A model generated the notes under the pieces. It ran no database searches and was not told where the DNA came from. It saw nothing but the letters and a program-made list of their open reading frames with translations. A stretch of DNA of 56,715 nucleotides, the filler included, from Jimgerdemannia flammicorona (taxonomy: Eukaryota), in NCBI GenBank assembly GCA_003990765.1. It is 2 parts of 2 records of this genome, joined end to end, with 100 filler letters (N's around TTAATTAATTAA, not from the genome) between each part and the next. Parts side by side here need not be neighbours in the genome. Positions count along the whole stretch, not along the records: positions 28,410 to 56,715 come from RBNJ01000571.1; 1 more part is not named here. One strand, given 5' to 3'. Numbering within the stretch: the stretch's first letter is position 1; every line of letters begins with the position of its first letter. Below, piece by piece: positions 4,701 through 44,000 of this stretch. Position numbers and translations under genes: made by a program.

Positions 4701-5521
4701 CCACCCTTGGAAGCAAAGCCAAATACTACACTACCTTGGATCTGTTCTCAGGCTTCCATCAGATCAGTCTCACTCAAGATACCAGTGAGAAATCAGCCTT
4801 TATTACACCTGATGCCACCTATATCTATCTGCGAATGCTATTTGGAATGTGCAATGCCCCAGCAAGTTTCCAGTGAATGATGAACAGAGTCTTTAGTAAC
4901 GAGATTGGAAAATGGCTCTTTGTCTATATTGATGATGTGATCATCTTCAGCAATACTGCACGGGAATATGTCAATTACATACAGCTGGCCCTCAAGAAGC
5001 TCAAGAAACATAGCCTCTACATCAAGCCCAAGAAATGCAAGTTTGCAGCCCAGGAAATCGCCTACCTAGGACACCTCATCAACCAGACCAGAATCCACAC
5101 AGACCCCATGAAGATCAAGGCTGTTGCAGCCTACCCGAGACCCAGAACAACCACAGAAGTCCATGCCTTCCTTGGACTGGCCAGCTACTACAGAAGGTTC
5201 ATCAAAGGATACTCCAATATTACAATACCTATCTATGAGCTACTGAAGAAGGAGACCAAATTCGAATGGACCAAGGAGCACCAAGAAATCTTCAATGAAC
5301 TCAAGACTAGGTTGACCCAAGCATTTATTCTCAGAAGACCAGATTGGAACCTAGAATTCATCCTGCAAGATATCAAGGGAATCACCTTCTGGCTTAGAAA
5401 AATCTCAGGGACTATACTGTCTACCATGGTACATAGGAACAGACTCAAGAAGTATCACAAACCTATACAAGAGAAGCAAAACATGATGACTGCCTATAAG
5501 GTTCTAGTCTGTGAATCATAA
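1735..5521 (+). pseudogene. gag-pol polyprotein remnant of A1
   Basis: ORF fragments starting 1901, 2303, 3047, 3482, 3947 and 4877 share one frame; gag, PR, dUTPase and RT motifs. Confidence 0.88.
3880..4295 (+). pseudogene. dUTPase domain within A1 pol (between PR and RT)
   Basis: GMDL, RSSLA, GVIDSDYTGEI, DRIGQM and RGEQGFGSTG match trimeric dUTPase motifs. Confidence 0.93.
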
Positions 5522-20845: not shown

Positions 20846-23800
20846 TCTTCCTCCTGAATAAGGATCTTCTTGAGCATCCTTATTCATTGGTCCAGTCCTG
20901 AAAAATTTGCTGATCCCATAACCTCTGGCAAGGGATCAAAAAGTGGTATTTATAGGCTGGTGTCTTCTCTATATATTTTGGCATAATGGTGAAGGGTCAC
21001 TTTCTTCATATAGAGTAAGGGCCTGATTCTAATCTTGACTAATCAGTTGATGGTTCAAACTTCTCTAGCTTCAAAAGTCTCATGAATAAGTAGTTACTAG
21101 TGCTGTATCTCTTAGAGAATAGTCCAGACAGATAGTCTGCTGGTCACAAGATATGCTGTTATGATTTGCAGACTAGAACCTCATAAGCAGTCATCACGTT
21201 TTACTTCTCTTATATAGGTTTGTGGTACTTTTTGAGTCTGTTCCTATGTACTGTAGTAAGTAGTATAGTCTCTGAGATTTTACTAAGCTAGAAGGTAGTT
21301 CTCTTAATATCTTGTATATAGAAGGGTTCTTCCTATTTGGGCTCCAGTTTTCGTGACCATAAGACTTCTACCATATTTCGATACAGTAGGACCTTTTCTC
21401 TGATTCAGATGGATTCTAGAGTCTTGTAATTCTTTTCTGCATTCTTCTTTATCAGTACTTGTGACTTGATAATGTAATCTTCAGCCTTATTCCTGATTTG
21501 GTGTAGTTTCTGGATTTCTGCATCAACCCATCTCCAAGTTAGGTCTAGATTTGTAGTTGAGGTTTCATCAGAATCTTCTTCTCTAAAGAGCAGTTCTCTT
21601 GGAGTAAAGTATGTGCTCTGTGATCATATATCTCATAGGACAGAGAGGGCAGTTGGGAGATAATTATCCCAATTCTCATATATCTCTAAGATCTTCACTA
21701 GGATATTCTTGAGGGTCTTATTAGTTCTCTCTGTCTGTCCATTTCCTTGAAGGTGGTATGCAGTGGTCTTGATATACTGGATCTTATATTTCTGATACAT
21801 TATCTCATAGAATCCATTGACAAATTCTGTACTGTAGTCTGTTGTGATTTGCTTTGGTATCTTATAGTGACAGATGATTTCTCAGTACAGGAAGTTAGCT
21901 ATAGAGAGGGCATTGGCTTCTTGTAATGCTCCTGCCTCTATCCATTTAGTGAAGAGATCTATAATAACTATAATATAGTGGTTTCCTGATAGTGTTACTA
22001 GTAGTGACCTAATAATATCCATTGTGATGTGATGAAAGGGGATAGGCTCAATTCTTGATGACCCAGATACCTGGTCTTATGGATCTTGTTTCTGTTTTTG
22101 GCACTTGTTACATCCTTTGACAAATTGGTGTAGGTCTTCTTCTATCTTGGGCTACTATATGGTTTTTTTTGCCTTGTCATATGTGTTGGTTCCTAGGTAT
22201 CCTTGCTCATATACTTCCTTCATTACTTGATACTTCTTATGTTTGAGTATTACTAGCTTTCCTCCTTTTCTGAGTGTAGTGTTGTCTAGTTCAAACTGTT
22301 TTTAAGTCCAGTTAATGATAGTGATTATCTAGAGTTCAAGGTGGTTGGGTATCTTCCACTGCTCAAGATAGCTGATTAATCCATAGTATAGCTTCTTATT
22401 TATATTGAATAGTCTTAATGGGGGTGTTTTGGGGTATTCTTGAGAGTGCATCAGCATTGGTATTGGTTCTTTCTGTAGTGCTTAACAGTATAGTCATACT
22501 CTTGTAGCCTGTAGATCTATCTGGCATATATTTCTTTGGGGTTCAGAGTGTGAAATAGCCAGGCAAGAGCAGAATGGTCTGTTTGAATAGTGAAGTGTTT
22601 CCTGGCTAGGTAGTAGTAGAACTTGTCTACTGTCCAAACTACTGCTAAGTATTCGAGCTTATATGACTTGTAGTTCTGTTCTACTCTGCAAATACCTCAG
22701 CTTGTATAGGAGATGACATATTCATATCTATCTTTCTTCTGAGCTAGGACTGCTCCAAGTCCTATAGTACTTGCATCTGTCTGCAGGATAAATTCTAGAT
22801 TCCAATCTGGTCTTCTGAGAATAGGTGCTTAGATCAACCTAGTCTTGAGTTCATTGAAGGTTTCTTGACACTTTTTGATCCATTCAAATTTGGTTTCCTT
22901 CTTCAGTAGCTTGTAAATAGGTGCTGCAATATTAGAATATTCTTTGATGAATCTTTTGTAGTAGCTGGTCAGTCCAAGGAAGGCATAGACTTCTGTGATT
23001 GTTCTGGGTCTTAGGTAGGCTACAATAGCCTCAATCTTCATGAAGTCTGTATAGATTCTAGTTTGGTTGATGAGGTATCCTAGATAGGCAATTTCTTGAG
23101 CTGCAAACTTACATTTCTTAGGCTTGATGTAAAGGCCATGCTCTTTGAGCTTCTTGAGGGCTAGCTATATATGATTGACATGTTCCCATATAGTGTTGCT
23201 GAAGATGATCACATTATCAACATAGACAAAGAGCTATTTTCCAATCTCATTGCTGAAGACTCTGTTCATTATTTACTGAAAACTTACTAGGGCATTGCAT
23301 ATTTCAAATGGCATTCACAGATAGATATAGATGGCATCAGGTGTGATGAAGGCTGATTTCTCACTGGCATCTTGAGTGAGACCGATCTGATGGAAGCCTG
23401 AGAACAGATCTAAGGTGGTATAGTATTTGGCTTCACTTCCAAGGGTGGTAAGGATTTCTTAAATATTTGGCAAGGGCTGTCTATCCTTCTTAGTGATGGC
23501 ATTGAGCTTTCTGTAGTCAATGCAGAGTCTTAGTGCAAACTCTCCAGGCTTGCTTTCTTTCTTTGGGGCAAGGACAATGGGTGAAGCCCAGAGACTGATA
23601 GCTTGCTTAATGATTCTGGCTTCTTTTATTTCCTTGAGTTCTGTTCATAGCCATTCTCTGTAGGCAGGTGGAATGGGTCTGGCTTTCTGGTAGATGGGCT
23701 TGGTATCACTAGTATCAACTTCATGGTAGTATTTGGGTTCTTAATTGTGAATATCTCTGAAGTCTATAGCAAGTACTTCTTCATTCTGATGCAGGATCTT

Positions 23801-26544
23801 GAGAAGTTGTTCTTTCAGGGGAAAGTTTTCTCTAATAGTATATATGTGCTTGTTCTGATCCTTATCTCTCTTATGTTTGAGTTTGATAATCTTGATGGTA
23901 GTATAGACTCCTCTTCCAGTAGATCCAAAGCCTTGTTCTCCTCTCTTGGTCTTGATGAGTTTGATGGCTTCAGTGATCTTGAGTTTCTTGATTTTGTAGA
24001 TCAGTATCTGGCCAATCCTGTCATACTTCTTAACTTTAAATAGGGTGGTGGGGTTGTGATTCCGGACTATGAGGAAGATCTCACCAGTATAATCAGGATC
24101 AATTACTCCTCCTTCAACTGAGATTTCACTTTTGGTCAGACTGCTCCTAGTCTTGATAATTCTGGTATAGTTCTCTGGCAACCTAACTCTAGTTCCAGTA
24201 CCAAGTAGGGTAGTGGTCTGTGGTTCAAGGGTAGCATTTTGAATGCTAGCAAGGTCTATTCCTATGGCTCCTTCAGTCTTATATTCTGGGATCTTGGCTT
24301 TGGGGTGAAACTTCTTGACCTTGAGGGTGATGTCTGATTCTTGTTCCTCCTCATTATCACTGTTAGCCTGAAGCTCAGGGGGCTGGTCATCTTCTTTGGC
24401 TTTCTTTTTTGCTTTAGCGGCTTCTTGCTCATGTTTCTGTTGGTGGATTTTCCTAACTTCACTGATACAGAACCAGCAGTCATTCAGGTGTTCAGAGCAG
24501 TACATTCTAGTACCATGGGAGTATCTTCCTTGAGGGGCATAGCCATCAATGATTTTGTTATACCACTGCTCATCTGTGAGTTTAGATGTCTTGTTCTTGT
24601 TCTTGTTCTTATTCACTGAGTGCATAAAGACCTCTGTATCCTCTTCATCTCCTTCCTCCATGTCTGGTAGAACTCCTTTATAGATATTGATAGAGACTTA
24701 TACCTTTTTTCCTCTATAGTTAATCTGCATCTTCTGGGCATTAAGGTCAATGATGGCCTTGGCCTTATGAAGCCATTGGTTGCCAATAAGGATGTCATAG
24801 TTGGTGGCACTTATAACAATTATATCTACTGAGATGGTAGCTCCTCCTATCTTGATGGGGACTTCTTGGATTTTTCCAAGAGGGGTAGCTTGTGTACCAT
24901 CTACTGTGACATAGACCATCTTGGTGGACTCTTCAATATCCCAACTTAGGCAGTCAATTGTCTTCTTGCTCATGAGGTATTCTTCAGCACTGGTATCAAT
25001 GATGATATCAAAGATATAGTCGTCGATCTGATATAGAGTATAGGCTGATATCTTGTACTGGTCTTTGGATTCTTCACCTGAGTTTTTAGATTCTTCTTGT
25101 ATATTGTGAGCTTCTACAATCTTATATTCTTGATTCTTAATAGTAATTGCAAGTTCTACTCTCAACTACTGTCTGAAGGCAGAGACTTCAGCTAGCTGTC
25201 CAAAAGTAGCATTGACCTTCTATTTCTTAAGGTCCTTGTAGATATCATACTGGTGGATCTTAGTCTTATACAGCTTCTGTTCCTTCTTACTTTCACTTTC
25301 TTCTGAGACTAGAGTAGTGCTTTCAATAATTTGGTGGGCAGCTTTATCTAACTCCATGTCTTGATCAATCTCCTCAGGTTGAGTCTTACTTTGAATAGTG
25401 ATAGCTGGGGTCTTCTTTGGTCTTCCAACTGGCTTGCTGTTACTCTTCTTATCATAAGGCTTAGATTGGGTTCTGGTATCTTTAGTAGCAAGGTAGAATT
25501 CAAGCTCCTTATAGTATTCTTCATCATCAGTATTGCCAATCTCCTTGATGACTACTGCATTAGTTTGTTCTTTATTTCTGCTAGCATTACTTGATTGGAC
25601 TTTGTGTCTTGTTTTGGTCATACAATTCTTTGTATAGTGACCTTCTTCTCAACATCTGAAGTATGTGATATTACATTCTTTTATAGCAGTTGCAAATCTC
25701 TGCACTAGTCTCCTGTTGGTACTTCAGACTTCTCTAACAACATTACTAAGGTGTGTAGTCATCTTAGTGAACTATTTGGCAAGTTCTTCTACTGGATCAG
25801 CTTTGGCTGCCTTGGGGGTAGATGGGATTAGTTGTCTGTTTACAACTATAGTAGGTATAATACTAGTTGGCTTTAATGGCTCCATCTTAATGCCAGTTAT
25901 TTTCTTCATTGAGTGTTTGGCAGAGTGTCTAGCAGTCTAATATCTCTGTGCAAAGACCACTTTCTGATCAAGGGTTAGTGCAGCTGGGGTAGACCAAATT
26001 GCTAAGGCAATTTCAAGGTGAACTCCTTTGAGAAAGGTTGAATCCACTATTTGTTCCTTGAGAGTATCATCATAGCTAGCCAAGACAATCTGGTGGCAGA
26101 TTTGGATATAAAATGAGTTAGGATCTTCACTAAGTCTCTGGTAGATAGTATTGAGTTGATTCTTGAGAGCTTGCTTGATCTCTTCAGTATAGTATATTGC
26201 TCTGAGAAAGACCTTCATATTGGCAAGTTTGGCTGCACTATTATCAGCAATAGTGGCTATATTGAACTTATCTCTGATAGATCCTCTGAGGCTGACTGGT
26301 AGAAGAGCCAATTGTGCATCCATACTAAGGGCTTGTATGGTGGTAAATTGTTCAAAGTCTTTAAAAAAGGTCAGGATTGATTCTTCAGTAGTATATCTAT
26401 AGAATATGGAGAGATACATTTCCATCTTATCTTGAATTCTTGCAGGGGTGACTCTTATAGTCAGGGTAGTTATTGTGGAGTTGTTCATTTTTCAGCTTGA
26501 AAGTGAGAGATTTATCTTGAATCACCAGCCAATAGGCACTAAGT

Positions 26545-29119: not shown

Positions 29120-31267
29120 ATGGCGTGGATAACAAACCTGAATGAAAGGGTTGCCAAATCGGCAGTTGGTCGCCATTTCAAGTTGGAGGGATCTGGTGTC
29201 AAGAAGGAACGTACGGGGTCCAAGTTCACCACCGAGATTCGCGCCGGTGTTGCCACCTTCGTTACGATGGTAAACTCTCTTGTTCGGATCTATTGTGTCG
29301 CCAAAGTCATGCAAGTCTCGCTAACCAACGGGCAATTCTGCACGGACCCCAGGCCTACATCATTAGTGTGAACGCTGCCATTCTCACCGATTCGGGTGGT
29401 CCGTGCAAATGCACCCCAGCCCCGAACGCAACAGGCAGCGGCCTGATCTGCGTAGGCGAACCCGCTTACACGGCTTGCCAGTTCATCGTGCGCCAGGACC
29501 TCATCACCGCCACCACCGCCGCCTCGCTAATCGCCACTTTCCTCATGGGCGCCGTCGCCAATCTGCCTCTAGGACTGGCTCCGGGCATGGGTATCAATGC
29601 CTATTTCACTTATACCGTTGTCGGCTTCAACGGAACCGGCAAGATCGCCTACGAAACTGCCATTGCTGCTGTCTTTATCGAGGGGATCTTATTCTTCATC
29701 TTGACCATCTTCGGCATCCGTCAATGGCTCGCTCGAATCATCCCCATGTGCATCAAGATTGCCATGGGCTCTGGCATTGGTTTGTACTTGTGCTTCATCG
29801 GGTTGCAGAGCTCTGCTGGTATTGGCGCGGTTGGTTCTGATTCCGCCACGCTGGTCACTCTCTGTGAGTATATGTTATCCACTTGAATTCGCACCGAGAT
29901 TTAGTGTATGAGATCACACTGACACGATATTCATTGCATCTAGCTGGTTGCCCTGCTTGGGCCAAGGATCCCACCACTGGCGCCTGCACCGGCCACCGCA
30001 TGGAATCTCCCACGACGTGGATGGGTATGTTGAACAAGTAAATGAACGTTTTGTTGTTCTAGCCCGTCGATCAAAACTCATTTTCTTTTTTCTTTCTTTT
30101 CCCTTTGTTCCCTTTCAGGTATCCTCGGGCTTATCATCATGTCCATCCTTCTCCTCTTCCGCGTAAAGGGTGCCGTCCTTATCGGCATCCTCTTCATCTC
30201 TATTATCTCGTGGCCGCGTAACTCCCCTATCACCTACTTCCCTTACACCGAAGCAGGCGACGAAGGGTTTAACTTCTTCAAAAAGGTTGTCAGCTTCCAT
30301 CCCATCGAAAAGTAAGTGTTCTCCTATTCGACCAAGTAATAGTCAGTTATCGCCCAATTTATCAATTGAAGCATCGCTAATTCTCCCAAACCCTATTAGA
30401 ACCCTCGCCGCCTTCAACTTTGACCTCACCGGTGGTCAAACCTGGATTGCTCTCATCACGTTCCTGTACGTGGATATCATGGACACGACAGGAACGCTTT
30501 ATTCGATGGCCAAGTTTGGTGGTTTCCTCGACAAGAACGGCGATTTTGATGGTTCAACTCTGGCCTTCATGTGCGACGCCATTTCCATCTCCATCGGCGC
30601 CATCTTTGGCACCTCTCCCTGCACCACCTTCATTGAGTCCGGTGCGGGCATCACCGAGGGTGGCCGCACGGGCATCACTGCCATCACCACCGCCTTCTGC
30701 TTCTTTATCAGTCTGTTCTTCGCACCCATTTTTGCCAGTCTGCCACCTTGGGCCACGGGACCCGCGCTAATCCTCATAGGGTCGTTGATGATGGCGAGCG
30801 CCAAAAATATCAATTGGGAATATATCGGCGATTCCGTGCCGGCTTTCCTAACCATGGCCCTGATTCCTCTGACGTACTCCATCGGTAAGGATCACTTTCA
30901 TAGATATTTGTTTTCAGATTGGAAGGAAAACTTACTAATCATCGACGCACGATCTACCTCCACAGCCTACGGTGTCATCGCCGGTATCGTTGCCTATGTT
31001 CTCATCAATGGCTCGGCCCTCTTCATCGAGAAGGCCAGTTTCGGGCGTATCACGCACGATAATAGCAAGCGTGAAACATGGTGGTCGGGTCTCGCGGGCG
31101 TGGGGATCGTCCCCATTTGGATCAAGATTGTCGCTGCCAAGGCCCAGGGCAAGGAATACAAGCACGAAGAGGAGGACGAGACGGACGAGTCGATTGGCAG
31201 TTTTAAGCAAATGGAAAACGAAAAAGGGGTCGAGGAATTGCCCGTCGCGGTTAGGATTACAGAATAG
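29120..31267 (+). CDS. azgA: AzgA-like purine (adenine/guanine/hypoxanthine) permease, NCS2 family; 6 exons (29120-29269, 29353-29863, 29944-30024, 30119-30311, 30400-30884, 30966-31267)
   Basis: EIRAGVATFVTMAYII, ANLPLGLAPGMGINAYF, DIMDTTGTL and FIESGAGITEGGRTG motifs; GT-AG introns restore the frame. Confidence 0.92.
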
Positions 31268-31938
31268 TGTGGATGAGAGAGGTGTACGATAATCGAAGAC
31301 GGGCTTGATGGTGTCTTGACGCATGTCGACTTTTTATTTTTATTTTACTCCTTTTGTTCTTTATAGCATTTAATACCGAGAAGGCGGAGGAGCGGTTCAT
31401 GTGAACTGTTGGCTCTGTTGTTCTCTTTGTACAAATATAATAATCGAAAATCCCGTAATATGCGATGCGTTTGCAGGATGTGTTCCAAGTGTTCGGGCGG
31501 GTCTGCGTTTTGGTCGTCCACGCTACAGTGCTCCAAGCATATGGCTACATTTTGTCCCATATCAAACTCATCAATAGATCGTACTTGAAGTTTGAAGTAT
31601 GGTAACATTTCACCTTCCACGTTCCACACAAAAACAATAGCGATAATAATCGGGCAATAATGACATGGTGAGAAGACTATTAGCGTTAAAATGAGCGGAG
31701 ACGTTGCAGTTTTCGAATAAAACAGAATGCAAACTTTAAAAAGGGGCAGCCAGTGCATGAATATGATTCTAAAGGTAAGCATAAAAAAAAAGGTATCCCA
31801 ACTTAAGCTGGCTGGCGGGTATCATACAATTACATGGGTGATAAAACGACATGAACGAACATAGGAAATAAACATACAAAATAAATATATAAATAAATAT
31901 ATAATAAATAAATAAATAAATAAAAACGTATTCAAATT

Positions 31939-34900
31939 CTAGTGTCGCGGCATCCTAATCCCCGATAGATCCTGTTCGCTCGGGGACCGCATGGAGGACT
32001 TGGCCGGCCGTCTTGGGGGTACAGTGGAGCTGCTCTGCTGCGCGTACGCGGGTGCGGGTTTCGCGGGCACAAGTGGACGTTTCGACGTGTTCGACTGGCT
32101 GGCGATGCTGCTCACGACGGATGCGGGGAAATGCGGCGCTGTTTCGGGGGTGTCATAGAACGTGTCTGGGATTGCCCAGCTCTCCGGGGGCGACCAACTC
32201 GGTGGCGGGCTCGACCGGACCGATTGTGTAGGACTGGTGGGTTCCGCCGTCGTGCTGCTGGTTGCCAACCTGGCGGCGGGGATATCAGGCGAACCGTTGG
32301 GCGAGGGGACTTTGTTCATTGGCGGTTCGTCTCCCAGAAGGCCCACTTCTGTGATGAAATGGAAAAAGATTAAAATTCACCTTTTGATGCAGTCTTGTTG
32401 CGTAAATGTTTATGGAACAATTACGAACCTGATATGCTTTGATCCTGTGCCTTAGGTCCCCCCTTAACATGACCCGGGAACGCTTCCATGAATTCATCGA
32501 GAACTTTCTTGGTCTTAGCCTCAGCGTAGTAACTGCACTCGGGCGTAACGATCACGAACAGCAACTCAGTCGATAGGTCGTGCTCGTCGTACCGGATGTC
32601 GCACTTTGAAATTTCGTGCACACCAACACAGTCCACAGTGTAATAACGGAGGATAAGCATGAGGTCATAGTCGTTCAGGAGAATAATCCGCACACGCTTC
32701 CATACGCTGAATACTTTGACATTTTTGATATCGAAAGACCAGATCGATGACTGGATTTGAGATTGACAAAGATTCAACAGTCAGAATTAATGACCACACC
32801 GCCGGACCGACACTTGTGAACTGAGCGAGAGAGATGTTTACCGTGCTGTTTTGTAATATCTGGAGCTGTTCCGAGGTTCCGAGAAATCCTTTAGCTTTGG
32901 AATGCAGTCCAGATCGAGCCATCTGTTCATTCTGGCCAAGGATGTTGAATAATTCGAACCCCTTTGCCGGATCTTTATTGCCGGCCACCTTAGGGAAGAG
33001 AATAAACCATATCTTGCTCCAAAGAAGGAAAAATGTTGCCACCACGCAACATATCAGGATGATGGCGGTGCGGAGGGCGAACTGCGTCAGCAGATCAATG
33101 GTCGAGAGGTACATGACTGACAGAGAAGACATGCTAATGGATCAGTATTCTTGGTACATGAATTCAAAGAATCAAACGTAAATATTGTTTGAGGACTATC
33201 ACCGTACCTGGCAACGTTACAATAGCAGAAACGGCAAGCATGTAAACAGTGAAGGCGATCATATGACTTTCATTGAAAGGCCCACGGACCTTTCGAGTCT
33301 TGAAGGCCAGAACGAGGCATGCGACGAGCAGGAAGCCGTTCAGCACGTAAAGCGTGGACATCATGCCCAGTTCAAAAGACCGGGATTGGGAGCTGCACAC
33401 AAATATGTACTCCCTTGCGGGCGATAAAATCTGGATTGGCTAGAATGAAATCGCAAATGACATATCTTAATAATTATGCTTGGCACTGTGGACGAGATGT
33501 CAAAAGAAGTACGATGTAAAAAATAAATCTGCAGGGACATCCACCTTTGGAGGATCAACAAGAATCCAGATGGACACTACAATCTGTGTAGATTAACAAA
33601 TAAATATTACTATTCGCGTCCTTTACAGATGTTATTTATTCAAATTATATCTATTTCTCACCACTTCAATGGCAAGGATTACTCCACCGACGATTAAAAG
33701 TCGAGAGTCAGGAATGCCTTTGTTGAGTTTGCTGCGATTCTCTGTTGGGTTGAAGACTCGTCAGTGAAAGGCGGTTACATAACCTTTTGGCATAGTGAAT
33801 TTCATAGACGAAACGTACCGAATATCTCAAACACTCTATACGTCTTTGCCAGTAACATTCTACAATGCAATTTGGCAACGTTTTTATTTCGCGTCAGTAA
33901 ATTTACCTTAGCATTACTTTCGAAAACAAAATAGTCAACTCACCCAAAAACAAGTCCGAACGAGCACGCCAGGATGTAGGGCGCCGACTTGCACTTGACA
34001 TCACTCGGCTCGCCCACATACGTCAGAATATTGGACAATGCCAGCAGCACGCCGGCGGCGATCAGGCAACAGAACAGAGGACTAGCTGCTCTGACAACAG
34101 GGTTATGCCTTCGCGCCCACAAGAACCCAGCGGCCAGGATGACAAAGATGGCGGCCACTGCATATGTGCAAAGGAAGGCGAGGGCGGATTTGGAGGTCCA
34201 CTCAATCGTGATTGGCGTCACCAACTCGGAGCAATCATTCTTAAGGATATTAGTGTAATTCACAGGGCACTTGCAAATATCTGTGGAAAGATGGAATGCG
34301 CCGTCCGTATCGCAAGAACCGTGTGCGCAGCCATTATCACAGGGCGCTAAAGAGATAGGCAATGATAAGCTATGACGGCCCATTCCAAATTGGGGATACG
34401 AGAAGCACGGCAGGGTATTGTACTTACAAACACCATATAGCACGGTTCCGCCGGCTGTGAAGAGTTTAAGGATGTCCTTGACCTTCGCTGTGACAGTGGG
34501 AGTGAGAGGCACAAATTTGTTGTCTTGGACGATCGATTGAGCGTACTGATGTAAAGTTGGATACATGCACATCAGTTAGTCAGCAGCTTAGGTAGTACCA
34601 GATCTGTGTAACCACCCCATCTGCCTTTTTTGATATTTATGCATATATATATCCATATCTTCCAGACAAGAACTTACCGGATCCGTATATGTCCACCAAA
34701 TATACCGTAATGTTTTCCGCGCTGTGTCAATACTTGTCCAGTTGTTCTTGTGAAGGATGAGATATCTACATGAGTGAATACGGGCGTTAATAGATAGTGA
34801 TGATCGGCCAAAGCGATTGAGACTTACGCAACAATACTTACGTGAAACCGCACTGCAAGTATCCGAGTCAGAGCAAAAGTAGCCATGTTGTAGTTTCAGA

Positions 34901-36455
34901 TCCAATTATAGCAGTGGTGATGGGATATGTAGCCAAGAAATTACTTACAATAGGATAGCTCAAAGCGCTCGGGCCGTCGGAAATAGACGTGGCAAACCTA
35001 GAGGAGCTACTCAAAGCATCAGCGAAATCGTCGATGGCACTCTGGAAAAATATAATAGATTTAGAAGGTATTAGCTTGCCGATTATCAACGCGTGGTAGC
35101 AAAGCATGTTGTGCACCGTCTTGGTGCTCACCCCAATGGTCGTGCTATTCGGCCCAACTACTTTGCCAGCCTGGTTGATGAGAAGAGCGCTGGTAAGGTT
35201 GTTGCTAAAAACTTCGCCGTAGTCTTGAGGCCAGGGGAAACAGACGTATGTGTGTTAGCAACAAAGGACGCAATCACTACCGAGCCCCAAATACGATTCA
35301 CAATCAGATGAATTCTCACCCATATACCCAATAGAATATTGGATAGCGTAAATGTATTTGCCTACGCCGGAGTTAAGGCTTCCGTTGAAGTCAGCACGGG
35401 GCCACTTTGGCATCATACTGGTTCCGACGGTGTTGTTCCAATTCGAGTCGAAGCGCGAAAGCGCAGCGCTGAAGATGTTGGATGTGCCGCTGCCATCTTT
35501 GCGAACAACCACTTTGATGGTAGCATTGGGTAGCTAAACAGCATTTTATTATATTAACGCTTGCGAAAGCTAAAGTACGAGGTCAGTTTATTAGCGAAAG
35601 GAGAGCAAACCTGGAAGTTATTTGTCGCTTGGATAAGCGGATGGTTCCAGGTTAAGATCGTGCCATTGTAAATGCCGACGAGAGCTTGGCGCGTAAGAGT
35701 GATCAATTGGTTGATGGCATTGGCTTCAGGTACGTTGTAAGCGACCGCCACGGCACTGGGCAAGTTTTCGAAATCGATGTTAGCAGTTCAACATAACATG
35801 GAAAGACACGAAATCAATTGATCAAATTATGATTACCCGGCCATTGTCGGTATCATTTGCTGTAGCCGAAAGAGAGTTGGTATTAATTGCGTAGAAAATA
35901 AATACACATGACGTTGAGAGTTATCTTGTGATGCTTACCAGATCCCCGCCTAGAGCGTACTGTTCTTCGGTAAGCATCGCATCGCTTCCAGCAAATTGTA
36001 CTTTGCTACCAAGGATGGCATTTATGCCTGCCGTACTTCCTACAGCCGAATACGTTACTGTGACATTTTCATATGTTCGACTGGAAGATTTACCCAAAGA
36101 TATAGAATTTAGATTGGAGAACGTTGGTAGGATCGGTTGGGCAGACGAACAAATGAAATAACCAACATCGTCATTACCTGGAGTACGTGTTTGCCCAGAT
36201 ACTATAGACACTGTATGGAAATGAAGCACCGGCACCTTGTATAAGTGTAGTGTTTGTCGGCGATGTTTGTGCTGTAGCGTTTGTCGGCGGTGACGTTTGT
36301 GCTGTAGTGCGAAGTCCATGTTGTCAGCAACTTTGCAGACAATTGAGGATATCGGTACCCGAAAGCGACATTCCAGCTATTGATGTATGCATACCGTCAC
36401 TGCCAATGGTGACAAAGATGAAGAAGAGGGCGGCGACAACCTGCTGTCTCAACAT
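31939..36455 (-). CDS. Multi-exon receptor: signal peptide + PstS phosphate-binding domain + EGF-like module + class C GPCR 7TM + PH-like domain + Pro/Ser-rich tail
   Basis: GAGASFP, GSTAG, AGSDA, RKDGSGTS, SIGY (PstS); CDNGCAHGSC..CKC; PVVRAASPLF, AKTYR, AFKTRKV..FNES..I (class C 7TM). Some exon borders are approximate. Confidence 0.85.
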
Positions 36456-38287
36456 GATTCAAAATCTTCTCGGACAGGAGAAAGGAATGGTCCGCGGAAA
36501 AAAAAAAAAAAAAAAATAGATGACAACCCATGGTCAATGCGGTAGTCGACCTAATTATGTATAAATCACAATTACATTTAGACAGTCACCAACCAAAGAA
36601 CCGGGACCTCGTCTGGCTCTAAGGCCACACGTTACCGTTTGTTCCGTGGCACCAGTGGTACGGGGTTCTGGCTAACGAAACCGTGCCGACGATGGGGTAG
36701 TCGTGCCTGGAATTAGTCGGCATGCCAATTATTACGTTTCCGACGCCCCGGAAGCCCCTCCAATCCGAAGCAAACTATGAGGCACGAGGAGGGTCCAGTG
36801 GCTAAAGACCCCAAACGGTGACTGTTCTTACCGCTATAAGCACAGCGGGAGGCATAGCAGACGACTTACAATAGTGTCTAAGACAAAGGCGTATGTATGC
36901 CGAACTGACTGACGTCCGCACGTTCGGCGCGTTCACTATGGAGCTAAAAATGGTGGTCATAACCAGGTTTCCAAGTTCAATGTGGTGTCGTTTGTAATAC
37001 ATAGTTGAGTGTGAGGTCGCAAGTCGGCGAGTTTCAGACCGCGGGTAACAAAGGAACTTTGTGGTCGGGAATAATGGATTAAATGGAGCCCGATCGACAA
37101 TCATCGTGGAGCTTGCCCTCTTTTCTAAGTAATAATGACCGCACGTGGACACCAAAGCGCTGCAGGTGTCTTGCTCCGAGGTGCCAAGATCAGCAACACT
37201 CCAGATTATCGATGCAGTAACCTGCATACTATGCCAGAGCGAAAATCAGTTCTTCCTGTCAATTTGAGTACGCTTGATTTAGATGATGTTACCAGGTACA
37301 GGCTCATTACTATGCAACCGAATTAGCAACGATTTACAAAAACACGAAGATAATGATTCGAATGCACTGTGTACGTTTTATTCTGTACAGATTTCACGCT
37401 TTTAAGATAGGACGTGATTTCGGGTTGCTTAGTACTATGTGGCACCTGTGCCCAGAAACGTTGTACCAATATTTATTTAGTGTATTTTAAACGGATGAAT
37501 TTTGCCTCAAATAGGCAGGATGAACTGAATATCTCACCGGCATAGTACACATTCTCATGTCAAAAAAAAAAAAAAAAAAGAATCGAAAATCTATTTGACA
37601 GGTAGGTGGCGGAAACTCTGATTGTGAAATGGTGATTTTAGCATAACTTGCCGTGATAAGGAATTTCGTGCTAACTATTTATCGGTCCAAACGGCAGGTG
37701 GTTTATACGGAAGGTGGGGTGACTTATTGTCCATAGAAAGATCCACGTGGTCAAGATACCACCCCTAACAGTCGGTAAACCACCACTCCATCTCAACTAT
37801 ACTCGATCGCATTATGTAAGCGACCGCTGCGTCAGCTTCATAATAGCGTACAGCCACGAAGACGACCTGTTGTTTTGAGCTATGGCGCGTCATGTCATCG
37901 ATTTCTCAAATCATTGCAAGCTGAAACGCAGGACCTTCGAAACAGTCCAATTCCTTTAGTAGTATGACGTCATACCTGAGAAATCATGACGAAATGGGCG
38001 ATATTCGCCAAAGTCGCCAAAGTCGCCAAGTCGCCAAAATCTCACAAAGTCGCCAAACGCGTTTTAACCCACCATGGGTATGACTGTGCATATCGCCCTC
38101 ACCGTCGTGTTCTTGTGCACATTGTGCCTCGGCCTCAAGGTCCATGAGGAATTCCAAGTGCCGCAAGGATTCCACTTCCGCGCCAAAAACAATGGATCTT
38201 TTGGTAAGCCATTGGAGGAAATCTGATACACTCTAATATTCTGCTCTTTGCCCACGTCCGACGAAACACGTCCATACTGAAGCCAAC

Positions 38288-38839
38288 ATGGCCCAACATT
38301 CAGGTTACATCCAATCCCTGAGCACGTCCTTTGCCACCTTCCAACCCGACCTTCCCATGCACCAACCCAACCTTCCCATGCGCCAACCCAACAACTCCGA
38401 GACAGTGTCCAAGTCGATCGCTGTCCTCGCCGAATTTCTCTACCAGAACACCATCTCTCCTATCATGCTGCGCGCTCGGCTCTCGCGGTTCAATGCCGAC
38501 ATCGCCCGCCGCTCATTCAAGCAAGGCTACCCGGTCGCGATACAGTTTTTGACGTACGCGCACGATCCGTGCGAGGGATCGTACTTCGTGCACTTGGTCT
38601 CCGCGGGCACCTACCCTAAGCCCGCCGTCATCTACGGCAGGGTTGCCGAGGTCGCTGTCGACAGGGACCCAGGGAGCGACATCAAGGTTCCGGAGAATTT
38701 CGAGTTTAAGGTCAGCATTTTGCCGTTGAAGGGAATGTTGCAGAAGATCGGGTATGCTGAGAGTGCCAGGGATGCGTTTTTCTGTTTGCATTGGGGACCC
38801 GGAGACGACTTGCAGCTTATGATGCAGGGGCCAAATTGA
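38288..38839 (+). CDS. Hypothetical protein, 183 aa, intronless
   Basis: Open ATG-TGA frame with C/G-rich third codon positions like the neighbouring genes; no recognised domain. Confidence 0.6.
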   Translation: MAQHSGYIQSLSTSFATFQPDLPMHQPNLPMRQPNNSETVSKSIAVLAEFLYQNTISPIMLRARLSRFNADIARRSFKQGYPVAIQFLTYAHDPCEGSYFVHLVSAGTYPKPAVIYGRVAEVAVDRDPGSDIKVPENFEFKVSILPLKGMLQKIGYAESARDAFFCLHWGPGDDLQLMMQGPN

Positions 38840-38999
38840 CAAAAAAAAAAATCCGTCACGAAAATCCTTGCAATTACTGAAAATTGTATGAATTCTGCCA
38901 TTGAAGATAAATAAATACGTGTCATCAAGAAGGTCGCGAGGTTTTGGGAAACGTATAGAAACACGTTAGTAGAGTAAAATAGTATGTTTCATGACTTGA

Positions 39000-41900
39000 A
39001 TTTTATTCACTACATTTACTACATTTGTTTTTTGTAATTCTATTTGCAGTTCACATCAATTATGCAAGTTTCATTTATGATAATTTTATTCGTGGTTACT
39101 ATTTTTGTTAAATATTAGAAATATAGGTCATAGACTACTTATTATGAGCTTTTTTGTATATATAAATTAATTTTATTTGTATTATATAGCTTTTGCTAAA
39201 TATTAGATAAATAAGTTAAAATTAAATTTTTACAATATATTATTCAGACTAATTGTATGATAGTTATGATTTTCAGATTTTTTTTCAGAGAGTATTTATT
39301 GAAAGATTTATTATAGATTTTATATATTATAATTTTTAAATATTTTTTATTTTAATTAATTAAATAAAATTTTGGGTTTAATAATTAAATTAATTAAAAT
39401 TTATAATTGATATAAATATAAAAAAACAATATATAAATTTATATATTTTAAATATAAAATATATTTAAATAAATATTTTATATTATAATAAAATAATAAA
39501 AATAAATTTTTAATTTAAATTAATTATATATTTATAGTAAAATCTACTAATATTATTAATTTAATATATAATATTTAAAAAAAAAATATAGATACTTTAT
39601 TTATAAATATTATATTTCTTTATAAAGTATTATTAATAATAATAGAGTTAATATAATGAGTTTAATATCTATTCTCTGTTTTATATTATTAAGTTCTAGA
39701 TAAATTATATAAGATCTAAATAAAATAATATATAAAGTAAATAGATATATTCTTTATATTAAAATTTTCATTATTATATATCTCAATTATATAGCTTATA
39801 TATAACTATATCATCTTTGAGCTACATATATTACTTAATATATAAAAATGTGAGTAATTAATAAATAATACTACTGCTCTTTCTTTTTATTTCATATTTC
39901 TAATAAAGTTATAATAAAGATTATAAGCTCTATTTAGTGGCTAATCTTTAAGACTATATATTACTCTATATTAAGATATTATAAGAGATAAATTAAAAAG
40001 CCAGCATAAGTATACTAGCTATAGTAGATGCAGATATATACTTTTAGAATAGATATAATAATAGTTACAATCTCTGTTACTAATATAAATATAACCAAAA
40101 GGTCAATTTCTATCTTTAATGATAAGGACTATACTATTTGGATATTCTATAAACAATCTTCTAGAAAAATATAACTTAGTAGAGTATATAAAACTATAGA
40201 TACAGATTCAAAATTATGATGTTACAAATGATGACTGAGTATTATATAAAATTATATTTATATTGTTAAATTTATAATGAAGTATATAATATATATATAT
40301 AATGACTACTCATAAAGTATGAGAGACTCTATACAATTATCATATATAAGTATCTATATTGAATTAATTTTATCTGAAATCTCAGCTATTTAATCTATAA
40401 ATAAAGTATAAGAAAAGAATCTAAGAATATACTAATTATATTAATAATCTAATAAATTAAGTAAATTCTCTAAATATATCAGCAAAGAGATTCTGGTCTT
40501 TATAAAAAGTCTCTCTGAGATATATAATATTATAATAATAGCTATACACAAAAGTAGTAAGCTTATAGACTATATATATATCTATAAAATAATAAGTTTT
40601 ATAAATAAGGAGATGCATTAAGAAAACAGTAGCAATAATGATAAAAAAGTATTCTATGAATTATGCAGACTAGGTAAGAAGTACTAATAAGGTCAAAAAT
40701 ATAAATTCAAGTTTAATAGAAACTATTATTATTATAGTAAGTATGAGTATATATAAAATAACTACTATTATAAAGATAAGAAGAATGATAAAAATAAATA
40801 TAGAGACTAGTATTGGTAATATAAAAATAGTAAAAAGAATCAAAAGAATAGTAAAGAACAATATAATACAAATATTACAAAAACTAATAATAACTAAGAT
40901 AGAGATATATTTTATATATAAGTAATATATATTGAGTATCTAGAGAAGATATCTATATTAAGCTATATATTTTTGAACTAGTAAAAAACATTAATATTAA
41001 TAGTAAAGTATATACATATCAATATAACTAATAATAACAATATAAAACTTATAGATTCTGATACTATATATTCCTAAATACATCTCACTCACTTTTATCT
41101 AGAGCCTTGGCCTATATTTCCTTATCAGTAGCTACCATTGAATCTATTGGCTTTTTTTGTTTTTTGTTTTTTTTTTTTAAAAAATAAATCTTTCATTATC
41201 CAAAATAAGTTGCTTCAACTGATCAAAGAAAAAAAGAATGCATACTATAGCAAACTCCAGCATGCACTGAATCATTGTAAATATTGAGTTCCAATGCATA
41301 CAGATGTCTAATATAAGCTCTTTCAGAGCTAAACTAATTGTCCTACACTATGTAGTGAATTTGTCTCATCATTGTGGAGATGATTAGACCAATACAACTA
41401 GTTTGTATAGCTTGGAAATTATACTCAGAGCCCCTCCTCTCTTGGGTGTTTTGTCTATGTGTATAAGATAATCCTGATCAATATGTGGACCTGGTATTAC
41501 ACATGATAGCTTTCTGTACCAAAGGTCATGTTTTTCTATTTGAGGCTGGCCACTAAAACTTGGAAAAATATTGAGTTATTTGTAGCATTGTCTGTCATAA
41601 TGGCCAAAATCTGTACTTGAAATATTTAGTTTGTGAATTATGTAAAAATAAATAACTAATAAAATCTGTTTTATTTTAGGATCTCCCTCAAAATGCTGAC
41701 CTGATGACAAGCCCCCCTTTTTTTTACCTTAGTTGTGATCCCAAGCTTCTGAATATAACTAATAAAAGCATCTGTGATGTTGTCTCCAAAATGAGGGCCA
41801 GCAAGTTTGATGAAGTCAAGGGTGAGATATTTAAGCTACCAATTGAGGTCAATCTAATGATCAATAATACCCAGAAATGAAATTGCATTGAGGGATATCT

Positions 41901-43000
41901 ATGTATCATTTGTAAACAAAATTTTGTCTGCCAAATTCTGCTTATTGAATGTAAGGTTAAATTGGTGAGCTCTTTTATATAATTCAGCTTACAAAGGTCA
42001 CAGTACCACCCTTATTTTACCTGAAGTATCTGGTAGAGATTGTCATACTCCTTTCTATAGGCCTCCAGGATATCTTTGTAAATAGTATCAGTACTTGGCA
42101 AATATAAATCATACTTGAGAAGACCAAAGATGCTATGTAATTGATCACTCTCAATGGTTGTAAATGGCTGGTCTGTGCATACAATCTAGCAAATAAACTG
42201 ATTTCAAAATTCTGCTAAAGAGTATGGCTAAATATTTTTGATTAAATAGTGTTGTTAGTATAGAAATGGTTGGGCAATCAGATAAATATACCCACTATAG
42301 CTTAGATGTCAATTTTATTTATTTCTATGTTCTTTTTGATTTTGTTAGAGTGCTTGTCTTTTATATATTGATTTATGTTCAAAGTTGTACTATTAAGCAT
42401 TTTGAACTTCTGGCTGGTGTAGTTTATGAGGGTAGATGAAACAATATCATGTGTGTATCAAATAAGTCAATAGGTGCATCTTAATTTTTTATCTACAATA
42501 ATTACAAACAATATCATCTCCTATCTTAGCATAATATTGCCAGATTTCAGAGCAAGGATTATATAGAAGGTGTGGAACTATCAGAGATATTTGACTTGAA
42601 GTGCTGGAAGAATTTGAAATCTCAGCTAGTATGTAGTGTAGACAATAGTTGGCTCACTATAGGGTGGGTTTTAGTAGTGTGGGTAGGACTAGCTGATCAT
42701 TGGCTCTTTGTTTTCAAGGAGAGGCAATAGATGGGTTTATAGAAGAAATTATTATGGTGGAAGAGGTTGATGGAGGAGTGGTGGGTAAGTTGGGGCCTCC
42801 AGGGTGGGTGATATTACAGTCTGGTGGAAAAGATCTATGAACAGAGTAGTGGGCAGATAGAGATGGTGTTAGACAAAGTGGCTTTTTATTGAGTAGGGGT
42901 GAGGGAGAGGGAAGTCCTCCTAGGGGGATTGAATGAGGGGTGGACTTAATATATTTATATGAGATAGATGAGTATTAATAAAGGAAGGAGTCCAAGTAAC

Positions 43001-43036
<36 letters not shown>

Positions 43037-44000
43037 TGTTTAACTTAAAGTATCATCAGTACTGTAAACTGTTGAAGACTGATCTGTCAATATGTATGTT
43101 TGTGTATTTATGTATATATGTGTATGTATGTGTATATATTGTATATGCATGTATGTGTATTGTATATATGGATGCATTTAGCATATAAGTCATGTGGAGG
43201 ATTTAGATTAAAGGATTTAGTTGAAGGATAAGGATGAGGATTTGAATTGGAGAATTCAGATTGAGTGATTTGAATTGAGTGATTCAGATTGAGTGATTCA
43301 AATTGAGGTGGTTCAGATGGGTGATTCAGATGGGACAATTCAGATGGGGTAATTCAGATTAATCTGAGTTAATTCAGATAGCTTCAGATTTGAGATTTGG
43401 ATCAAACTATCATATAATAAATCAAATCCAAATTTGATTCGAATTGACTTGTTCAGAGCACTATTATTAATATCTATTATCTTAGAAATATAAAAATATT
43501 CTTAATGTATTTATTTTTATTTATATAGATTTTTAATTATAAAAATAATAATAAAAGTTAGTATATCTTAGTTATATATTTCAGTAAAAAATAATTTTAT
43601 TTTTTTGACTGTTTTGTACCTATATTTAGAGATAAGATTTTAAAAGTTTATAACTTTTAAAATTATAATAGTTTTTAAGAAAAAATTTATCAATAATTTT
43701 TTATATACATAATAATTCTATCTTTGGTAAAAATTTTATAAAAAAATTTTTTTTTTTTTTAAATAAATTAAGATATATTTTTAATATAAAAACAATGTTT
43801 CAAAAAATCTTTTTTTTTCAAACTTTAATTTGTCTGCTAAATGATTTTAAAAGAATAGTCAAAGGGATATAACTTACTATAGTATCTTTAACTTATTTAG
43901 ATATAGCTTTTTCTTAATACCTTAAGATCTACAAAATTTATTTATTTTTATTAAAGTTTTATTTTTTTTCTTTGCATTTTTTCTATGTAGAAGTGACTAT
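39000..44000. repeat. Very AT-rich decayed repeat block
   Basis: Abrupt composition shift, almost no CpG, abundant TpA. Confidence 0.75.
41100..43463 (-). mobile_element. Degenerate hAT DNA transposon remnant
   Basis: Minus-strand relics IVCTDQPFTTIE, TNDT*ISLNAISFLGIIDH*ID, ILAIMTDNATN, DICMHWNS; GATTCAGAT subterminal repeats at 43250-43445; putative end TAGTGCTCTG at 43463. Confidence 0.75.

Follow-up and report, generated by a model that had tools for sequence, protein, structure and literature searches.

Fungi sense external phosphate, as far as is known, only by means of yeast-type transceptors and intracellular SPX signalling. For the G protein-coupled receptors (GPCRs) of class C, the type I Venus-flytrap domain ANF_receptor is typical but not required, the ectodomain being variable in non-metazoan members (PMC3251606). 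A PBP_like_2 domain was recorded on the Spizellomyces protein SPPG_06488 (Krishnan 2012, PMC3251606), and in Plasmodiophora brassicae seven 7tm3 fusions with an SBP or PBP domain were reported, PBP_like_2 among them (Rolfe 2016, PMC4815078). In class C receptors of anaerobic gut fungi, a type II binding domain replaces ANF, and some of them have EGF-like modules (Seppala 2016, PMC5168858). We analyzed a 56,715-nucleotide stretch of DNA, hereafter the window, made of two parts of the genome assembly GCA_003990765.1 of Jimgerdemannia flammicorona, which NCBI taxonomy places in the Mucoromycota, Endogonales. Its minus strand harbors a gene, with its ATG at 36455 and the last base of its stop codon at 31939, whose product joins a domain of the type of PstS, the bacterial phosphate-binding protein, to a class C seven-transmembrane (7TM) region.

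The protein consists, in this order, of a signal peptide, a PstS domain, a six-cysteine linker, the class C 7TM, a cytoplasmic PH-fold domain and a disordered tail. On the strength of sequence comparisons and structural models we lean, by a small measure, towards the view that the gene encodes an extracellular orthophosphate-sensing class C GPCR with a PstS-type (type II) flytrap. It is a new member, with a corrected gene model, of a family that is catalogued but functionally untouched, and the details that it adds are the PH-fold domain and a complete binding pocket. A first-pass annotation of this DNA had placed it at 31939..36455, which is exact for the minus-strand gene. The architecture as such is no novelty: the combination of PBP_like_2 and 7tm_3 was published in 2012 and 2016, and the public models of this very gene carry both Pfam domains.

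The ectodomain was characterized largely on P0003 (950 amino acids [aa]), which together with P0004 (894 aa) represents a second gene copy 94-95% identical to the window. Pfam PF12849 (PBP_like_2) scored 104.7 bits on P0003, for a cut-off of 27. Residues 32-338 aligned with residues 4-308 of Escherichia coli PstS (1ixh, 321 residues) with an E value of 1.7e-37 and an identity of about 29-30%, and the match to Yersinia PstS among Protein Data Bank (PDB) sequences reached 2.5e-38. The NCBIfam PstS equivalog TIGR00975 was matched over profile positions 1-312 of 315 with 198.4 bits, for a cut-off of 205; P0003 lacks 10 residues of a PstS core strand owing to a model error, which lowers this score, and the true protein may therefore pass. 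In an AlphaFold2 (AF2) model built from P0003 with a 46-row alignment, the block means of the predicted local distance difference test (pLDDT) were 82-97 over residues 31-260 and 83-92 over residues 301-350 of the PstS domain. Between those blocks the values dipped below 60, and below 50 at residues 287-295, where the 10 residues are missing. Foldseek superposed the modelled ectodomain on phosphate-bound PstS structures with TMt values of 0.84-0.91 (0.88 for E. coli PstS) and a root mean square deviation of about 2-3 Å. Thus, by model and structural comparison, the two-lobe fold of type II binding proteins is present.

In E. coli PstS, D56 serves as the discriminator against sulfate, and D137 positions R135. 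The residues of the window protein at the positions of T10, F11, S38, D56, R135, D137, S139, G140 and T141 are S, F, S, D, R, D, S, G and T. The phosphate ligands of the E. coli protein (1IXH) are Thr10, Phe11, Ser38, Asp56, Arg135, Ser139, Gly140 and Thr141 (PMC6549937), and the alignment with 1ixh therefore bears out the first-pass claim that all eight are retained, with T10 present as Ser. The four motifs on which that claim was founded were all recovered after splicing, and the E. coli counterparts quoted for them (gagatfp, gssgg, gasda and radgsgts) are present in the 1ixh_A alignment. The four motifs are located as follows.

36236-36216, minus strand: GAGASFP, aa 43-49, with the T10 and F11 equivalents
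36040-36026, minus strand: GSTAG, aa 76-80, with the S38 equivalent
35992-35978, minus strand: AGSDA, aa 92-96, with the D56 equivalent
35503-35480, minus strand: RKDGSGTS, aa 176-183, the R135-T141 region

Judged from these residues, the ectodomain has an intact phosphate-type pocket, from which we infer that it binds phosphate. As all eight direct ligand positions, D56 included, and D137 as well are kept in the window protein, and as the best structural matches are phosphate-bound PstS proteins, we consider it unlikely that the same receptor build serves another ligand, whether a different oxyanion or some phosphorylated compound, with arsenate, phosphite, pyrophosphate and small organophosphates as examples. 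What speaks for such a ligand is that PBP_like_2 is a broad family, that identity to E. coli PstS is modest, that D137 varies among relatives and that P0003 falls just under the TIGR00975 threshold, a shortfall to which the missing residues contribute.

We then compared the pocket across the family. A HMMER search with P0003 against 1.84 billion cluster representatives returned 11051 matches at E<=1e-3, 232 of them at E<=1e-30, and the best 150 representatives were scored locally with three P0003 segments. The fusion of a PstS-type domain to a class C 7TM was found in 39 of these 150. Twenty of the fusions were looked up, and 16 of those had organism names: Calcarisporiella, the aphelid Amoeboaphelidium, Paraphysoderma, Spizellomyces, Cladochytrium (2), Nowakowskiella, Phlyctochytrium (2), Gorgonomyces, Chytriomyces, Polychytrium (2), Blyttiomyces, Siphonaria and Borealophlyctis. 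Endogone sp. has an ortholog (P0005), and the Spizellomyces protein SPPG_09437 (P0160) was also found to belong to the family. Homology extended over both domains, across query residues 32-795 for P0012 and 27-659 for P0008. By NCBI ranks the carriers fall in the Mucoromycota, Calcarisporiellomycota, Blastocladiomycota and Aphelidiomycota, to which we add the chytrids on our own assumption about the placement of the chytrid genera named. Counted by NCBI's ranks, members of the family persist in six or more fungal phyla, an indication that its function has been maintained.

For the pocket comparison we used 42 GPCR-linked PstS domains, excluding P0001, P0002 and P0004 as faulty duplicates and dropping domains that covered fewer than 200 of 321 query positions. 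The residues found at the eight ligand positions among these 42 domains were as follows.

T10 column: S in 25, T in 8
F11 column: F in 26, L in 6
S38 column: S in 34
D56 column: D in 34, E in 4
R135 column: R in 35
S139 column: S in 41
G140 column: G in 35
T141 column: T in 33, S in 4

Mean column identity in a full-length alignment of 34 fused receptors was 16%. Purifying selection on an anion pocket would give such a pattern. The exceptions were mostly second or third domains of proteins with several PstS domains. Loss of contacts in the second domains of multi-domain members (P0056_d2, P0065_d2) might suggest an orphan or constitutively active receptor that retains its PstS domain mainly for structure; most members, however, retain the contacts in the domain farthest from the membrane, and this gene retains every one of them there, which makes that explanation quite improbable here.

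The PstS domain is followed by a six-cysteine module (C373, 377, 382, 395, 397 and 409) and by seven hydrophobic helices, seen both in hydropathy plots and in the AF2 model. On P0003 the PF00003 (7tm_3) profile was matched with 159.5 bits, where the cut-off is 33.5, and the match ran from position 2 to position 250 of 251. Among PDB sequences the 7TM matched mGlu2 (E 1.1e-19), GABA-B2 (5.3e-16) and CaSR (6.8e-16), and mGlu7 too. The cysteine before transmembrane helix 3 (TM3) is kept, 'gepsdvkC' being aligned to 'gepqnwtC' of CaSR; the cysteine of extracellular loop 2 (ECL2) and AFKTR...FNE align with mGlu5, and the KT.R..IF motif is kept as well in the CaSR and mGlu5 alignments. These are the TM3 and TM6 motifs and the cysteine pair of class C. 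Single exons sufficed for Pfam matches, with PBP_like_2 on exon 3 (E 4e-7) and 7tm_3 on exons 12 and 16 (E 6.5e-12 and 6.7e-15). The matches of both domains are thus far beyond chance by these scores, and the class C identity of the 7TM is unambiguous at the sequence level. ANF_receptor had no Pfam match, the ectodomain being PBP_like_2.

An EGF-like linker had been annotated between the two domains. The cysteine-rich module and the 7TM behind it were confirmed, but the label is only weakly supported, as Pfam EGF matched the module with an E value of 0.18, below the cut-off. Pfam NCD3G gave no match at E<=1 on the window exons. In a phmmer search the module aligned with the last part of the Cys-rich domain of CaSR, in a match that ran on through TM1-3 (E 7e-4). 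In view of this alignment, the module may be what is left of the linker of class C receptors, and not an EGF domain proper. When two copies of the ectodomain (P0003 residues 25-400) were submitted to homodimer prediction, the score was 0.00 for a mark of 0.42, which speaks neither for nor against dimerization; any dimer would be conjectural.

The cytoplasmic part starts with a domain that had been missed in the earlier annotation and is newly recognized here from modelling. The AF2 model of exon 18 (aa 728-835; pLDDT 83.2) shows seven strands (E2-10 to E73-78) and then a helix (H81-90). The top Foldseek matches in the PDB, ranks 1-10, were all PH domains (ASAP1, pleckstrin, DAPP1, TAPP1), with TM values of 0.59-0.72, and a protein language-model look-up (Atlas features) assigned exon 18 to PH clusters with a score of 0.91. 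No Pfam family matched exon 18 at E<=1; it is therefore a PH fold by structure, its membership in the PH family by sequence being unproven. The β1-β2 loop of the window protein reads K..K......KRVR, which we compared with what we take to be the basic phosphoinositide-binding motif of PH domains in that loop; the last basic residues are not kept in Endogone P0005 and Calcarisporiella P0008. Among the 156 proteins compared, the domain was restricted to P0001-P0005, P0008 and P0081. The last approximately 135 residues are predicted to be disordered, and in the P0003 model pLDDT stays below 50 from residue 808 onward.

This cytoplasmic architecture also bears on the idea that the protein captures or presents phosphate without signalling, the 7TM being an anchor and the PstS domain concentrating phosphate for nearby transporters. 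Bacterial PstS is indeed a delivery protein, and 7tm3+PBP fusions have been termed novel transporters (PMC4815078). A plain anchor would hardly retain the class C signalling motifs, 7tm_3 is no transporter fold, and the conserved PH-fold domain and long tail suit signalling better, so that we give capture without signalling little credence.

We examined whether all these parts belong to a single gene. The gene model was built by hand, by reading the three minus-strand frames and joining them at GT..AG borders. It has 19 exons and 18 introns, all GT..AG, of 76-132 nucleotides (nt; mean 89). The coding sequence is 2913 nt long and encodes 970 aa, with a single terminal stop. GC content around the gene is moderate (45-47%), and the window is eukaryotic in character. 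The exons are the following, with the evidence for each.

Exon 1, 36395..36455, minus strand: start codon and a signal-peptide-like hydrophobic N terminus (about aa 1-21; hydropathy peak at aa 1-19)
Exon 2, 36178..36301, minus strand: Ser/Thr/Pro-rich repeat with NxT sites, then the PstS start including GAGASFP (joint 36080/36178; 1ixh alignment)
Exon 3, 35939..36080, minus strand: PstS lobe with GSTAG and AGSDA (PBP_like_2 E 4e-7, 30.5 bits, cut-off 27; joints 35859/35939 and 36080/36178)
Exon 4, 35837..35859, minus strand: 23 nt encoding QMIPTMAG (joints 35755/35837 and 35859/35939 in X1 and X2)
Exon 5, 35611..35755, minus strand: PstS domain (PBP_like_2 E 8.5e-4; RNA joints)
Exon 6, 35320..35533, minus strand: PstS domain with RKDGSGTS, the R135, D137, S139, G140 and T141 equivalents (joints 35533/35611 and 35223/35320)
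Exon 7, 35132..35223, minus strand: PstS domain (joint 35041/35133, with one letter between; joint 35223/35320)
Exon 8, 34949..35041, minus strand: PstS domain (RNA contig support)
Exon 9, 34842..34852, minus strand: 11-nt mini-exon, CGFT (RNA contigs of X1 and X2)
Exon 10, 34678..34765, minus strand: PstS strand YLILHK and the helix after it (gene model and RNA contigs)
Exon 11, 34428..34545, minus strand: C-terminal end of PstS (joint 34545/34678 in X1 and X2; 34346 and 34428 joined in X3 record 8, 0 mismatches)
Exon 12, 33944..34346, minus strand: six-Cys linker, TM1, TM2 and the TM3 start including the conserved Cys before TM3 (7tm_3 E 6.5e-12; EGF E 0.18)
Exon 13, 33819..33859, minus strand: TM3 end with LLAKTYRVFEIF (joints 33859/33944 and 33741/33819)
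Exon 14, 33662..33741, minus strand: intracellular loop 2 and TM4 (covered by X3 record 7)
Exon 15, 33545..33583, minus strand: TM4 end (X3 record 7; joint 33439/33545 in X1, X2 and X3)
Exon 16, 33208..33439, minus strand: ECL2 with its Cys, TM5, intracellular loop 3 and TM6, AFKTR...FNES (7tm_3 E 6.7e-15; mGlu5 alignment E 1.5e-6)
Exon 17, 32842..33116, minus strand: TM7 and cytoplasmic linker (joints 33116/33208 and 32750/32842; hydropathy)
Exon 18, 32429..32750, minus strand: cytoplasmic PH-fold domain, aa 728-835 (AF2 and Foldseek)
Exon 19, 31939..32348, minus strand: disordered Ser/Pro-rich tail and stop (X1 and X2 cover 31933-32331; X3 record 5 ends at 32348)

RNA evidence was taken from three public runs aligned to window positions 31800-36600. 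X1 and X2, which share one organism label, contain spliced contigs of a copy approximately 95% identical to the window, and X3 is a soil metatranscriptome. The contigs have joints at or beside 18 of the 18 introns, mini-exon 9 included, and they back the 19-exon model. X1 record 1 is a single 3317-nt contig of the approximately 95% copy that spans 31933 to about 36460, from the PstS exons through the stop codon. Its joints on model borders are 32750/32842, 33116/33208, 33439/33545, 33741/33819, 33859/33944, 34545/34678, 35223/35320, 35533/35611, 35755/35837, 35859/35939 and 36080/36178. In X1 and X2, 11 letters stand between 34765 and 34949, and their sequence is that of exon 9 in reverse complement. 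Because the approximately 95% copy has substitutions or indels, its joints are shifted by a few letters at introns 1, 7, 11 and 18, and support for the exon 1 donor is indirect, 36397 and 36265 being separated by 11 letters in this copy. Near the N terminus the window gene has two copies of a 9-aa unit that contains NxT sites; P0003 has one, and it also lacks one residue at the start of the tail.

The five short contigs of X3 differ from the window by 2 letters in total. Record 7 covers 33545-33583, 33662-33741 and 33819-33856 (exons 15, 14 and 13) with 0 mismatches, and record 8 shows the last PstS exon spliced to the linker/TM1 exon, also with 0 mismatches. Linkage of all exons in one contig was observed for the approximately 95% copy, and that of the window's own copy piecewise; as the contigs are assemblies, they show presence and linkage, not expression level. 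The PstS and class C 7TM exons belong to one spliced mRNA, and the gene is expressed. The earlier proposal of a single gene with both domains was confirmed by the 3317-nt contig and X3 record 8, and the prospect that the two sets of exons lie on separate transcripts is thereby removed. As the ectodomain is fused to a 7TM receptor on one eukaryotic mRNA, it is a PstS-type domain and not a component of PstS transport.

Public models of the locus disagree, which could hint that neighboring genes for a secreted PstS and a 7TM protein were read as one. A word-index protein search with exon 12 led to four public models named Jimgerdemannia flammicorona, all of them already annotated with PF00003 and PF12849 (precomputed). 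P0001 (756 aa) and P0002 (896 aa) are 100% identical to the window over exon 12; P0003 and P0004 are the second copy described above. Mini-exon 9 is absent from all five public models compared, P0005 of Endogone being the fifth, and its residues are matched in Calcarisporiella P0008. P0001 and P0002 also keep the intron before the linker and skip exons 13-15 (the TM3 end and TM4; window 33545-33859). All five compared models are faulty, with either the PstS or the 7TM domain broken. As all exons are linked by a single RNA contig, the splice from PstS to linker and TM1 is present without a mismatch in X3 record 8, no stop or start is needed between the domains, and the same fusion recurs in 39 of the 150 best representatives, the probability that the gene is an artefact of modelling is negligible.

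In the mechanism that we propose for a phosphate-sensing receptor, orthophosphate of the soil solution would be enclosed by the two lobes of the PstS domain, where the conserved Ser/Phe of the N-terminal loop and the Ser, Asp, Arg and Ser-Gly-Thr contacts would hold it. Closure of the lobes would be relayed via the rigid six-Cys linker to the 7TM bundle, which would then activate a heterotrimeric G protein. The PH-fold domain and the long disordered tail may recruit or position downstream partners at the membrane.

Several observations weigh against a phosphate-sensing receptor. To our knowledge, neither a ligand nor a coupling mechanism has been demonstrated for any class C receptor whose binding domain is of type II. 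D137, which is kept in the window protein and in the Endogonales/Calcarisporiella clade, is kept in 15 of the 42 family domains. The window shows no enrichment of CACGTK, the Pho4-type core (25 sites versus 20.1 expected, with 18 of 100 shuffles reaching 25); the four of them in the 1.3 kb upstream of the ATG (36628, 36919, 37142 and 37744) were not counted as evidence. According to the consulted part of a 2026 review, the fungal Glutamate-like class still requires experimental validation (PMC13308352), and the Plasmodiophora homologues have been interpreted as transporters (Rolfe 2016, PMC4815078).

A broader interpretation, which we put forward tentatively and at a little short of even chances, is that this is the first dedicated GPCR for extracellular orthophosphate in any eukaryote. 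It would belong to an ancient, overlooked set of 'PstS-receptors' by which external phosphate is read directly at the cell surface in early-diverging fungi and also, there with guanylyl cyclase as the output, in some marine invertebrates, in parallel to the intracellular SPX/inositol-pyrophosphate route. In Endogonales it might direct the growth of hyphae, or their uptake, to phosphate in the soil, which would afterwards be traded with the host plant.

The origin of the PstS domain was investigated with a FastTree phylogeny of 159 PstS domains, unrooted, with local supports, sampled from the best matches to P0003 and with most of the short rows unnamed. The window domain grouped with P0003, Endogone and two Calcarisporiella proteins (support 100). 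A branch with support 98 separated 75 rows, comprising all 42 GPCR-linked domains and 28 from other long proteins, from 84 rows, 64 of them belonging to proteins no longer than 520 aa, for the most part stand-alone PstS, and 20 to longer proteins. Around the Endogonales clade there was a weak 20-row cluster (support 86, below the 95 mark) with Paraphysoderma, the jakobid Andalucia and mollusc and nemertean receptor guanylyl cyclases. The nearest PstS domains were those of fungal GPCR-linked proteins, with 54% identity for Calcarisporiella. A recent bacterial transfer into Endogonales was rejected on these grounds, as the nearest domains are fungal and GPCR-linked and the branch with support 98 sets all 42 GPCR-linked rows apart from the 84-row group. 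The phylogenetic check for bacterial origin suggested earlier thus gave no sign of a recent import in this unrooted tree of best matches.

The spread over chytrids, an aphelid, Blastocladiomycota, Calcarisporiella and Endogone makes the fusion look old within fungi, with no sign of a recent bacterial import, and not specific to symbiosis. Jimgerdemannia is described as a putative ectomycorrhizal fungus and 'Endogone sp' as saprotrophic in the sections available of one study (PMC12574304). The suggestion that the gene might be relevant in a root symbiont therefore holds as far as the host is concerned, but a tie to symbiosis does not, given the presence of the family in those lineages and in the saprotrophic 'Endogone sp'; a symbiosis-specific gene is ruled out by the family distribution. 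A word-index search with the family alignment A3, with scoring confined to the 8000 candidates that had most words in common and an output of 12 proteins, added only P0009, a second Calcarisporiella protein, and with those limits it is no proof of absence from Mucorales, Mortierellomycotina or Glomeromycotina.

PstS ectodomains were also observed on receptor guanylyl cyclases, in place of the usual ANF-receptor domain, in Argonauta (P0006), Haliotis (P0053), Tubulanus (P0055) and Argopecten (P0063). P0006 has PBP_like_2, a kinase-homology domain and Guanylate_cyc according to Pfam and is 34% identical to P0003, and P0053 reaches 214 bits with TIGR00975, above the cut-off of 205. Judging by their domains, these cyclases may constitute a second family of eukaryotic phosphate receptors. 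The ichthyosporean Chromosphaera perkinsii has a protein of 2386 aa with four tandem PstS domains (P0010), and the jakobid Andalucia godoyi has two of 745 and 751 aa with the source label PstS (P0032/P0163). By these matches, PstS-type domains are widespread in eukaryotes outside fungi.

The rest of the window contains the following features.

3839-4558 (plus strand), 16935-17519 (plus strand) and 23744-24697 (minus strand): open frames bearing dUTPase
4877-5518, 10380-11822 and 16013-16609: reverse transcriptase, integrase and protease open reading frames, with RNase H frames too, beside the dUTPase frames
29146-31264, plus strand: permease of the Xan_ur_permease family (purine/xanthine-uracil type) in at least two open frames, beyond the receptor 3' end and on the opposite strand
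38001-44000: AT-rich block (GC 0.26-0.32) upstream of the receptor gene, with a strong GC skew (0.338) at 42001-44000
48869-50191, minus strand: 441-aa open frame with a protein kinase domain, then DUF5615

From their sequences, the dUTPase, reverse transcriptase, RNase H, integrase and aspartyl-protease frames are fragments of dUTPase-carrying long terminal repeat (LTR) retroelements. The permease neighbor has no obvious link to phosphate.

The gene provides a concrete and easily testable ligand hypothesis for the fungal Glutamate-like class, and the ectodomain should express as a soluble protein, making the hypothesis cheap to test. If it is true, a receptor family spanning at least six fungal phyla would gain a ligand, it would be shown that a class C 7TM can be driven by a type II binding protein, and a natural module for phosphate biosensors would be at hand. 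It would also raise the question whether mycorrhizal Mucoromycotina sense phosphate at their surface, and it bears on fungal nutrient sensing and mycorrhizal biology in general. A literature search at the level of titles and abstracts found no PstS-type GPCR proposed or tested as a phosphate receptor, subscription journals being outside its scope and the supplements of Krishnan 2012 and Rolfe 2016 possibly listing more members. A choanoflagellate GPCR preprint had no mention of PBP or PstS, and Liu 2025 none of phosphate or PBP.

Among described systems, the closest are the 'Glutamate-like' receptors of Spizellomyces and Plasmodiophora, which likewise have a PstS-type domain followed by a class C 7TM and mostly keep the phosphate contacts, whereas the Endogonales/Calcarisporiella clade adds the cytoplasmic PH-fold domain. 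In the portions of those publications consulted, the proteins figure in domain lists or under the label 'transporter', with no proposal of a phosphate receptor. The gut-fungal receptors (PMC5168858) differ in that their binding domains are sugar-binding-like, and the word 'phosphate' occurs 0 times in the text. The guanylyl cyclases described above share a PstS-type ectodomain on a eukaryotic signalling receptor, but they have a single transmembrane helix and a kinase-homology and guanylate cyclase output instead of a 7TM.

E. coli PstS (1IXH/2ABH), the periplasmic component of the PstSCAB importer, resembles the ectodomain in its end-to-end alignment, its fold and its ligand positions, with T10 as Ser. 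In contrast, the window protein is eukaryotic and intron-rich, has NxS/T sequons and is fused to a 7TM, and owing to this covalent fusion its PstS domain would be unable to dock on PstCA. With the metazoan mGluR, CaSR and GABA-B receptors it has in common the homology of the 7TM, the layout of flytrap, Cys-rich linker and 7TM, the TM3 and ECL2 cysteines and the FNE motif; it differs from them by a type II PstS ectodomain instead of a type I ANF_receptor and by the PH-fold domain in its C-terminal tail. Phosphate acts on CaSR through anion sites in the type I flytrap, which are not homologous to the PstS pocket. As CaSR has been reported to be a phosphate sensor (PMC8476121, citing Centeno 2019), it sets a precedent for phosphate sensing by a class C receptor, by way of a different pocket.

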